Of a DNA stretch of 32,218 nucleotides, positions 4,820-7,505 are shown piece by piece. The translations under genes were made by a program, and so were the position numbers. This DNA is from a virus (taxonomy: Duplodnaviria > Heunggongvirae > Uroviricota > Caudoviricetes). Below the pieces are notes generated by a model. That model ran no database searches, had not been told where the DNA came from, and saw only the letters and a list, made by a program, of their open reading frames with translations. Position 1 is the first letter of the stretch; every line of letters starts with the position of its first letter. Location of the stretch: IMG/VR virus record IMGVR_UViG_2534682164_000018; one strand, written 5' to 3'.

Positions 4820-5065
4820 ATGAACATTGATAATTGGGCAATACCGATAACAAGTTTGGGTGGTCAGTTGCTGGGGGTTGAGTTGGTCAGCCATGTAGAA
4901 CGCGAGGGAATCAGGCAGATCGGCCTATGGGAAGAAGAAGTACTTCATGGGCAACTAATGCTTATTGAAAGCAAGGCGGCATGGTTCAGGGATAACGGTT
5001 TGTATTGTGTGATTACTACTGGCCGTGGTGAACCATACGAGTACTTACCATTCCTTCGGCAGATG
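4820..5065 (+). pseudogene. N-terminal fragment of a degenerate EAL-like (YdiV-like) gene interrupted by an IS21-type element
   Basis: PITSLGGQLLGVELVSHV fits the EAL-domain QPIV...EALLRW region; the reading frame runs into the IS left end at 5066, where IS sequence supplies CQRHDV-stop. Confidence 0.5.
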
Positions 5066-5124
5066 TGTCAACGCCACGATGTTTGACCGTTATTTGCCAT
5101 TTTCATGCCCGCTAAATACTTTCG

Positions 5125-5925
5125 TTACTGATGCTGTCCGCTTTCCACCATTTCATCATCACTGATTGGCGTTGTGTTTTTGGTCAGCACTCCAGCTTTA
5201 CGTTTCTCTTTTAACCGGTAACTCTCTCCTTTGATATTCAGCGTGGTTGAGTGATGTAGCAGCCGATCCAGGATCGCTGTTGCCAGTACGTGATCTCCGA
5301 ACATTTCTCCCCAGTCTGCGAACCCTTTGTTTGACGTCAGTATGATGCTCGCTTTTTCATATCGACGGTTCAGTAGCCGGAAGAACAGACTGGCTTCCTC
5401 TCTGTTCATCGGCAGATAGCCTATTTCATCCAGGATCAACACCCGGGCATAACTCAGTTGCTGTAGCTGACGCTCCAGCCGGTTTTCCTGTTTCGCTTTC
5501 ATCAGTGTCGCGATCAGTCTGTCCAGTGGCATAAACAGTACCCGATGTCCCGCATCCACCGCTTTCACGCCAAGAGCTATGGCCAGATGAGTTTTTCCGA
5601 CACCAGGAGGGCCCAGCAGGATCACGTTTTCGCTGCGCTCCACGAACGCCAGACCAGCCAGTTCCCGGACAACCTTACGGTCGATGCCCGGCTGGAAGGT
5701 AAAGTCGAACTGCTCCAGCGTTTTGACCCACGGCAGACGAGCCTGCTTCAGCCTGGACTCCATACCGCGCTGATGCCTGCCGTTCCATTCCTGCTGTAGC
5801 GCCATGCACAGGAACTCCCGGTAGTTCAGCTCTTTTTTAGCTGCCTGTTCCAGCAGGCTTTCAACGTGATAACTCAGATGCTCCATTTTCAGGCGACTCA
5901 GCAGGACTTCCAGTTCATGCATCAC
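5125..5925 (-). CDS. istB: IS21-family IstB ATP-binding helper protein
   Basis: Walker [12 protein letters not shown] and Walker B LILDEIGY; overlaps the istA stop, as is typical. Confidence 0.9.
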
Positions 5926-7094
5926 AACAGCTCCTCATAGGCACTCAGTGGTCGATGTTCCACCTGACTGACCTGCTGCCAGAGCGGGGCGTGATGCTCC
6001 GGCACTGTCTGCCAGCCAGACGATGCTGAACAGAGGCGATGTGAGGCCACCAGTTTCTCATTACTGTAGATCCGCAACTCGTCATCCAGCGATATTCGTA
6101 TCGATACCGGCTGACCACACAGCGCTTCGGGAACGCTGTAACGATTACCACCAACCTCGATATAGCTGTCCCAGGACACATGGCGGATATCGAAGTAACT
6201 GGTATCGAAGTCTGTATCCGGTAACGGCTGCAGATGTTCCTGCTCCAGCGCGAAGCGCTGTTCCGGCGTTTCTTTGAACTGGCGAAGCTCCCGTTTGTCA
6301 GCCACATCGGCTATCCATTGCTCCAGTTGTTGATTGACATGAGTGAAGCTGTCGAACCTGCGGTACCGGACGAAGAAGTTCTCCTTGAGGTATTTCACCA
6401 TCCGCTCAACCTTACCTTTTGTTCTGGCCCTGCGTGGACGGCATGCCCGTGGCAGGAAGTTATAGTGGTCAGCCAGCAACAGGAATCCGGAGTTGAACAC
6501 GACTTTCCCGTTGTTATTCTTCAGCACCGCAGCCTTCTGGTTATCAACCAGCACCGTTTTCACACAACCACCGAAGTAGCGGAAGGCGCGAACCAGTGAT
6601 TCGTAGGTATGCTCAGCATCCTGTTTTGGTGCGGCGAAGACATGGAAGCTGCGGGAGAACCCCAGCGTATTAACCGCAAAGTTAACTTTGCACCGTTGCC
6701 CGGCAACCTCCACCTCAACTTCGCCCCAGTCATGCTGGAGCTGGTATCCAGGCTGAGTTTCGAAGCGAACTGTTCTTTTTGACGGACGCATTTTACGTTT
6801 GGGCTGGATGTAGTAACGCAGCATGGAACGTCCGCCCGTATAACCCATTGCCTTAATCTCCGCGAAGATAACCTCGCTATTCCAGACATTCTCTGCCAGG
6901 CGCATGTCGATGTAATCCATAAACGGTTTCAGCTTAACCATTTTGTGGCGGGTCTTTCTGGCTGGCGGTTCAGGGTATTTGAGGTAGCGTCTGACCGTCC
7001 GTTCAGAGCAACCAATCTGAGTCGCAATATCAACGATGTACGCGCCCTGCTGGCGCATTTGCTTTATCATGTAAAAGTCCTCTCTGCTCAGCAT
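5922..7094 (-). CDS. istA: IS21-family IstA transposase
   Basis: 390 aa; N-terminal HTH ([38 protein letters not shown]) and DDE integrase core; matches IS21 IstA as recalled. Confidence 0.9.
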
Positions 7095-7195
7095 GTTGAT
7101 GTCCTTTCTGGTGTGAGAACCTTAAGGAAACAACATGTTGGGTGGAGCGGACAATCCAAATGGCGAATTACCGTCTTATATCACTGGCGCTGACA

Positions 7196-7505
7196 GATGA
7201 CAAGGGATATGAAAGTACATAACCAGCAGTGGCTTGATGATCTCGGTGTACATGGTGGTTCTGCTATTCCTCTGGTTACAGGTGATTTCGAGGTTGCCCG
7301 ATTAAATAGAAGGTACACAGAAGAGAACATTGACCGTCTGATCTTTCCAGTACTCATAAAAAGCATTCGCCAGTACTGCGAGAAGGTGATCGTACCCGTC
7401 AGAGATAAAACGTATTACCCAATTCTCAGAGAGGCCGGTGTATGGGCGGTACAGGGAGAGTTCAGGCCAATGCGTTTTGAGCAATGTGAAAAATTAATAG
7501 GATAA
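7196..7505 (+). pseudogene. C-terminal fragment of the same degenerate EAL-like gene
   Basis: WLDDLGVHGGSAI, NIDRLIFPVL and REAGVWAVQGEF fit the EAL motifs DDFGTGYSSL, KIDRSF and AEGVE...QGY; removing the IS and one GATG copy joins it in frame to 4820-5065, giving a 185-aa protein. Confidence 0.5.

Follow-up and report, generated by a model that had tools for sequence, protein, structure and literature searches.

A prophage gene for a short, degenerate EAL-like protein related to STM1697, and its interruption by IS21 in Shigella sonnei

The DNA analyzed here is the whole 32,218-nucleotide stretch of the IMG/VR virus record IMGVR_UViG_2534682164_000018 (Caudoviricetes), referred to below as the window, which is a decayed prophage carrying a gene for a short EAL-like protein (mini-EAL) that is split by a complete insertion sequence (IS), IS21. 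The tetranucleotide GATG, read from the sequence with the joins recomputed, is found twice, at 5062-5065 (left copy) and 7196-7199 (right copy), with the 2130 bp of the element (5066-7195, minus strand) in between. This element is bounded by imperfect terminal inverted repeats (TGTCAACGCCA / TGTCAGCGCCA) and carries intact istA (5922-7094, minus strand), encoding a 390-amino acid (aa) IstA (NCBIfam transpos_IS21, E 1.2e-84; Pfam rve and Mu-transpos_C_2), and intact istB (5125-5925, minus strand), encoding a 266-aa IstB (IstB_IS21, E 2.5e-90). It is 99.9-100% identical to the IS21 copies of Escherichia coli chromosomes and plasmids, and IS21 is among the 12 IS types catalogued for S. sonnei 53G (PMC7373316). 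The related locus L015 contains a second, independent IS21 copy with another 4-bp duplication, CCGT, on its flanks, so that 4 bp is the normal footprint of the element. Every mark by which IS21 is recognized was therefore found, namely istA with istB, terminal inverted repeats, a 4-bp target duplication, and near-identity to reference copies. An IS21-type interruption with a GATG duplication had been proposed in a preliminary description made from the sequence alone, and it is confirmed by the junctions, by the near-identity to the E. coli IS21 copies, and by the intact alleles described below, in which GATG is single.

The 5' part of the EAL-like gene (4820-5065, plus strand) comprises codons 1-82, the last of which is Met82, and the 3' part (7200-7505, plus strand) comprises codons 83-183 and the stop codon, including the DDLG strand, a conserved helix (FPVLIKSIRQYC), and a QG motif; the IS21 junction in the split gene reads CTTCGGCAGATG/TGTCAACGCC. 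As described previously, the fragments rejoin in frame when 5066-7195 and one GATG are removed, and the EAL-like motifs are placed as described (ELV at residues 21-23, DDLGVHGGS at residues 95-103). The joined gene is 552 nt long and encodes 183 aa and a stop, instead of the 185 aa given at first. As the sequence stands, the left-hand open reading frame (ORF) runs to 5086 and encodes an 88-aa fragment, including six IS-encoded residues, that is identical to protein P0072. The ATG at 7197-7199 in the right GATG copy restores the Met82 codon and yields an ATG-initiated 102-aa C-terminal ORF, which contains the entire putative FlhD-binding region discussed below; neither a Shine-Dalgarno sequence nor a promoter was evident for this ORF at the right IS21 junction. 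The 3' fragment (P0014) bears the NCBI pipeline name "EAL domain-containing protein, partial."

Actually, the intact gene exists. The same 552-nt DNA, 100% identical, uninterrupted, and with one GATG, was found in five loci of other S. sonnei assemblies (L011, L012, L015 [CP061367.1], L016 [CP026802.1], and L018), which answers the question raised in the preliminary description of whether relatives carry an intact copy, and S. sonnei HE616528.1 (L013) has the same split arrangement as the window. Counts in the protein collection are 307 contigs for the intact 183-aa protein, 125 for the 88-aa fragment (P0072, S. sonnei), and 108 for the 102-aa fragment, so the insertion is polymorphic among S. 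sonnei strains. We have hardly any doubt about this insertion anatomy or about the homology set out next. A further locus, L014 (GCA_900158005.1, FTTX01000005.1; 7534-9808), has the same IS21 left junction and N-terminal gene fragment, but there the opposite IS21 end adjoins the ars (arsenic resistance) region, not the C-terminal fragment, which indicates a later IS21-mediated rearrangement, by recombination or inversion between IS21 copies.

A direct Pfam search with the 183-aa protein gave no match even at E<=10, so that PF00563 is not reached at its curated threshold, and the NCBIfam PdeH model matched the C-terminal half (E 2.7e-5) below threshold (23.6 bits vs. a cut-off of 190). The mini-EAL family is small, with 15 clusters among 5.8 billion proteins; an exhaustive search at E<=1e-3 yielded 56 cluster representatives, which are mostly longer EAL-like proteins. 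The longer relatives retrieved with the family profile do score above the Pfam gathering threshold for EAL, and through them the mini-EAL family is tied, by transitive homology, to EAL domains. Among solved structures, the profile built from the 14 short members (A1) matched one protein, STM1697 of Salmonella Typhimurium (PDB 5hxg; E 1.4e-28). In hhalign comparisons the same profile aligned with a diverse STM1697-like set (100%, E 9e-42), with the family of the active phosphodiesterase PdeH (96.9%, E 1.3e-10), and with YdiV/RflP (85%, E 6e-6); YdiV gave no phmmer or hmmsearch match to the mini-EAL family. An alignment first taken as the STM1697 group (A5) was discarded, as its sequences were frameshifted YdiV variants, and A8 was used in its place. 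The comparison with EAL models that had been recommended at the outset thus drew a blank with Pfam directly, but succeeded with profile-profile alignment to PdeH and through the longer relatives.

The fold agrees with this assignment. An initial AlphaFold2 model, for which 14 sequences were used, was of low quality in the region 69-112 and was replaced by one from 53 sequences (predicted local distance difference test 88.7, predicted template modeling score 0.86), whose alignment contained STM1697, YdiV, and PdeH homologues and which used no templates. In Foldseek, the best match of this model was STM1697 (E 6.5e-16, template modeling score [TM] 0.84, root-mean-square deviation 3.1 Å, 30% identity), followed by YdiV (TM 0.80) and then RocR, MorA, YahA, LapD, FimX, and other EAL domains, with >90 EAL structures at E<=1e-3, so that both homology to the EAL barrel and its fold are present and the structure prediction called for in the preliminary description did return an EAL-like fold. 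The short family has ~50 residues fewer than STM1697 (235 aa), and the missing residues form three blocks: one in the N-terminal helix, which is lost in part, a second of ~13 residues following the FCVITT strand, and a third of ~17 residues between the ExxE and DD strands. In the model the barrel strands are kept and two helices are gone. The protein is, by sequence and structure, a stand-alone degenerate EAL-like protein whose nearest relatives are STM1697 and YdiV.

When PdeH was taken as the catalytic reference with its ten canonical positions, four were found to be kept, namely E48 (E21 of the ELV motif), D158 (D95), D159 (D96), and Q235 (Q167 of the Q167-G168 motif), and six to be replaced, namely N105 (T66), E133 (M82; the first ExxE Glu), E136 (D85), K179 (R116), E215 (P148), and E218 (R150). 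The catalytic set of active EAL phosphodiesterases of cyclic di-GMP (c-di-GMP) is thus incomplete, and no member of the short family has kept the Asn, the first Glu of ExxE, the Lys, or the Glu of EGVE. The earlier characterization as EAL-like but catalytically degenerate is accordingly correct, on the evidence of profile and fold methods and not of Pfam. In a 169-aa subtype found in E. coli and Scandinavium (P0015; L006/L007/L010/L023), the 19-residue WLDDLGVHGGS strand is missing altogether and the C-terminal helix motif is kept, which argues that the DD pair is dispensable for the role of the family. STM1697 and YdiV neither bind nor hydrolyze c-di-GMP (PMC5622320). Because the catalytic residues are lost, P0015 lacks the DD strand, and STM1697 and YdiV are inactive, phosphodiesterase activity is very unlikely, and from its residue losses the mini-EAL protein is predicted not to bind c-di-GMP either.

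STM1697 binds the master regulator FlhD and thereby shuts flagella down, and its crystal structure with FlhD lists eleven contact residues with F160 and L173 at the center of the interface; the F160A/L173A and L172A/L173A/H176A substitutions abolished both binding and motility repression (PMC5622320). Five of these eleven contacts are identical in the window protein (L136 as L97, V147 as V108, L173 as L134, K175 as K136, and Y180 as Y141), three are conservative (F160 as Y121, K167 as R128, and L172 as V133), one is changed (H176 to S137), and two (V115 and L116) are absent with the deleted helix; the central pair is retained as Y121 and L134. The helix motif at residues 128-142 nearly equals the consensus of the STM1697 clade, FxVLIKNIKxYC. 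Invariant columns of the family are concentrated in the same part of the protein, as residues 116-146 hold 16 in 31 positions vs. 21 in 152 elsewhere (37 in total; Fisher p 1.4e-5). The ratio of nonsynonymous to synonymous substitution rates (dN/dS) was 0.07-0.29 for all pairs but one (the near-identical L006/L010, 0.46), and the least saturated informative pair gave dN 0.067, dS 0.354, and omega 0.19; the mini-EAL family is under purifying selection.

Because the contact helix is conserved and selection is purifying, we infer a protein-binding regulator that uses the surface used by STM1697. The best overall explanation, which we consider reasonably probable, is that the window carries an IS21-inactivated prophage gene for an STM1697-like, c-di-GMP-independent, protein-binding anti-FlhD4C2 factor. 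The intact gene encodes a stand-alone mini-EAL of 183 aa, homologous to STM1697 and more distantly to YdiV/RflP, that keeps the EAL barrel; as ~50 residues (two helix segments among them) and the majority of those that bind metal and substrate are gone, it very probably does not hydrolyze c-di-GMP. By analogy with STM1697, it would act through protein-protein contact: the helix 128-142 and Tyr121 would dock on the FlhD subunits of the master activator FlhD4C2, and this docking would dampen flagellar class II transcription in lysogens. FlhD itself, proposed by this analogy, is the leading candidate for the target, although we stop just short of calling it probable. The insertion of IS21 into codon 82/83, with duplication of GATG, split the gene and is probably polar on the lipoprotein gene downstream.

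The genes around the split gene bear on how this explanation is weighed. A divergent 103-aa gene of no assigned function (phrog_2100; 4316-4627, minus strand) lies upstream, as an ORF does in most relatives (103-105 aa; 129 aa in L010; none called in L022), and no Pfam or PDB relative and no recognizable DNA-binding domain was found for its product. A gene for a 120-aa predicted lipoprotein (MKKLLIGLLIALSTGC...; 7511-7873, plus strand) starts six bases past the EAL-like stop codon and probably forms one operon with the EAL-like gene. A co-oriented small gene usually follows the EAL-like gene in relatives, the slot being occupied by the 120-aa gene in L001, L003, and S. sonnei L013/L016/L018 and by an ORF of 90-146 aa in the others. 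The guanine-cytosine (GC) content of the EAL-like gene (45.7%) does lie at the top of the prophage range, as remarked earlier, most prophage ORFs having 31.5-44%, but it is not peculiar to this gene: because its three immediate neighbors (4316-4627, 7511-7873, and 7881-8150) share it (43-46%), it is not evidence of separate acquisition.

The divergent intergenic region is 192 bp long and contains a perfect LexA (SOS) box, TACTGTATATATGTACAGTA (4649-4668), located 21 bp upstream of where the 103-aa gene begins. It is the sole such site in the window (0.04 expected), and its core is invariant in four diverged relatives, other genera included; on this sequence evidence, the 103-aa gene may be an SOS-controlled antirepressor-type gene of the prophage lineage. 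A 26-bp block that hardly varies, AAAAATGATCAATTATCAAT(A/C)A(C/G)TTA (4775-4800, plus strand), stands a short distance upstream of the EAL-like start codon; it contains TGATCAAT palindromes with GATC inside and is conserved even though the proteins of the relatives compared share only 50-87% identity. The motif (A/T)TGATC(A/G)AT occurs in three or four copies within 4736-4800, further copies standing at 4736 and 4749, and there is a weak sigma-70-like match at 4762-4790. The repeats and block at 4736-4800 are a candidate operator/promoter or Dam-sensitive site before the EAL-like operon, and the conserved LexA box together with the near-invariant palindrome block suggests that the divergent pair is a regulated module.

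The prophage setting given in the preliminary description is established by two HNH endonucleases, the small terminase subunit TerS (phrog_57), the large terminase subunit TerL, a lambda-type portal, a protease-capsid fusion, a tail fiber, and a gpJ-like tail protein; a reading of the ORFs at 12196-24377 as a type VI secretion cluster was rejected, as they include terminase, portal, protease-capsid, and tail fiber genes. The full loci begin with a large serine recombinase and adjoin prkA/yeaG in most cases, the neighborhood of L004 being different. The position of the EAL-like gene, ~2-3 kb upstream of TerS/TerL, is the same in all contexts examined, which were those in Escherichia/Shigella, Lelliottia, Scandinavium, and gut-metagenome contigs (L009, from Enterobacter chinensis, was not among them), and the gene is constant in all relatives examined while the genes around it vary. 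The term prophage cargo used at first is hence right about the location, but in these relatives the gene behaves as a fixed syntenic member of one lineage more than as sporadic cargo. A DNA search of the phage database with the window returned IS matches only, and no close relative of the lineage was present among 50,697 deposited phage genomes, the best portal identity among them being 31.5%. One of the complete E. coli genomes carries a related prophage, in which the homologue is annotated "hypothetical protein," and a scan of species-representative genomes added only two further loci, because GTDB keeps one genome per species. In E. chinensis (L009; NZ_JARDVI010000002.1, 8001-8417), the homologue ends after 92 codons and similarity runs to residue 139, apparently an independent frameshift or pseudogenization within the mini-EAL family. 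A protein match in the phage database, to a 2.2-kb "UNVERIFIED_ORG" Salmonella record, was not used, as it is probably host STM1697 DNA. No EAL-fold protein was found in the viral structure set BFVD, and a literature search found no description of a phage-encoded anti-FlhD4C2 EAL-like factor. The compact phage-borne STM1697-like family is not described before, and in all contexts examined it is found in one uncharacterized prophage lineage.

Several points weigh against FlhD as the partner. Two of the FlhD contacts lie in the deleted helix and His176 is replaced by Ser137, the P0015 subtype also lacks the strand that holds the equivalent of L136, and STM1697 and YdiV bind FlhD in different ways, which makes conservation of the interface a soft predictor. 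The likeness of fold is partly expected from the composition of the AlphaFold2 alignment. In addition, a fixed slot by a LexA-controlled gene and operator-like repeats could mean a phage-internal role. The strongest alternative is built in part on the same observations: the mini-EAL may bind a protein other than FlhD, for example as an anti-repressor or a modulator of a phage or host transcription factor in the circuit of the phage itself. There is precedent in the degenerate EAL domain of BluF/YcgF, which antagonizes the MerR-like repressor BluR. The constant position among variable genes, the divergent partner in most loci with a LexA box conserved before it in the five that were aligned, the invariant GATC-containing palindromic block upstream of the EAL-like gene, and the deleted and changed contacts all speak for it. 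It does not account for a helix motif that almost matches the one in the STM1697-like clade, no phage protein emerged as a candidate partner, and the 103-aa neighbor lacks a recognizable DNA-binding domain; we consider this alternative unlikely, if clearly the best of the rivals.

As for the insertion, it is most simply taken as neutral decay, spread by clonal descent in a non-motile host. Shigella species are non-motile, and because an anti-FlhD4C2 factor is useless without flhDC and the prophage was already defective, loss of the gene would cost nothing. The flhDC operons of Shigella were lost through IS activity (PMC7373316). In the window, terL is split by an IS2-like element at ~10825-12156 (97.5% identity to IS2 insC/insD) into ORFs 10422-10865 and 12196-13656, which leaves the prophage unable to package DNA, and a second IS2 (99.6%) and an IS911 (99%) lie in the tail-gene region (~27051-28384 and ~30695-31942), making four IS elements within 32 kb. 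An adaptive insertion, selected in an S. sonnei lineage because it removed the regulator or because it was polar on, or activated, neighboring genes, would fit the commonness of the split allele (108-125 contigs for the fragments vs. 307 for the intact protein) and the recurrence of the same left junction in the L014 rearrangement. However, clonal descent can account for that frequency, the prophage is broadly decayed, Shigella has already lost the presumed target pathway, and no sign of an outward-facing promoter was obtained, so that we regard adaptation as improbable. Least credible of all is a working phosphodiesterase or a c-di-GMP-binding effector of the FimX/LapD type, for which the EAL fold, the retained Glu21, DD pair 95-96, and Q167-G168, and the weak NCBIfam PdeH match could be cited, but which is opposed by the family-wide replacement of the four catalytic residues named above, the deletion of two helices beside the active-site strands, the lack of a Pfam EAL match, the failure of the nearest relatives, STM1697 and YdiV, to bind or hydrolyze c-di-GMP (PMC5622320), and the P0015 subtype, which lacks even the DD strand.

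Disruption by an IS is itself routine, IS-split genes being abundant in Shigella and the likely target pathway already lost there. What deserves attention is the intact family, a helix-depleted EAL barrel of ~180 residues that is missed by standard domain models and labeled "hypothetical." Were it to bind FlhD, host motility would be under a phage-borne switch, and the family would represent a minimal scaffold for the STM1697-type FlhD interface, which could help to explain how dead EAL domains turned into protein-binding regulators. We put forward, tentatively, that a lineage of temperate enterobacterial phages with a large serine integrase, mostly inserted by prkA/yeaG, carries a fixed mini-EAL, set in a conserved divergent module together with an SOS-controlled gene, by which the phage shuts down host FlhD4C2; possible gains would be that lysogens are hidden from flagellotropic phages or innate immunity and that resources are saved.

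Compared with known systems, the IS21 copy of the window is an ordinary member of the IS21 family (istA transposase and istB helper ATPase) with TGTCA termini and no notable difference. PdeH (YhjH) and the other active stand-alone EAL phosphodiesterases (PF00563) have a homologous barrel, and the Glu of E-L-x, the DD pair, and QG are common to them and the window protein, which differs from them in the six replaced catalytic positions, the two missing helices, and a sequence below Pfam detection. YdiV/RflP (STM1344; PDB 3tlq and 4es4), a c-di-GMP-independent anti-FlhD4C2 factor with an EAL-like fold, delivers FlhD4C2 to ClpXP and binds the same face of FlhD as STM1697 does; its interface residues F155, F168, F181, and A184 have no counterpart in the window protein. 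In the STM1697 mode the DNA complex persists and RNA polymerase is excluded, and in the YdiV mode the DNA is released. At high concentration YdiV strips FlhD4C2 from DNA (PMC5622320). The earlier assignment to the YdiV type is right in that YdiV is related, but the nearest known protein is STM1697, which is the best match of the window protein in sequence, profile, and fold. Unlike STM1697, which belongs to the chromosomal core, the window protein is prophage-encoded; its three deletions take two helices with V115/L116 and shorten the N-terminal helix, H176 is Ser, and the Asn and Lys kept in STM1697 are lost. Like STM1697, it is a stand-alone degenerate EAL domain lacking catalytic residues; both have the motif F-P-[VL]-L-[IV]-K-x-I-R-x-Y-C in the FlhD-contact helix, and the position of F160 is aromatic in both.

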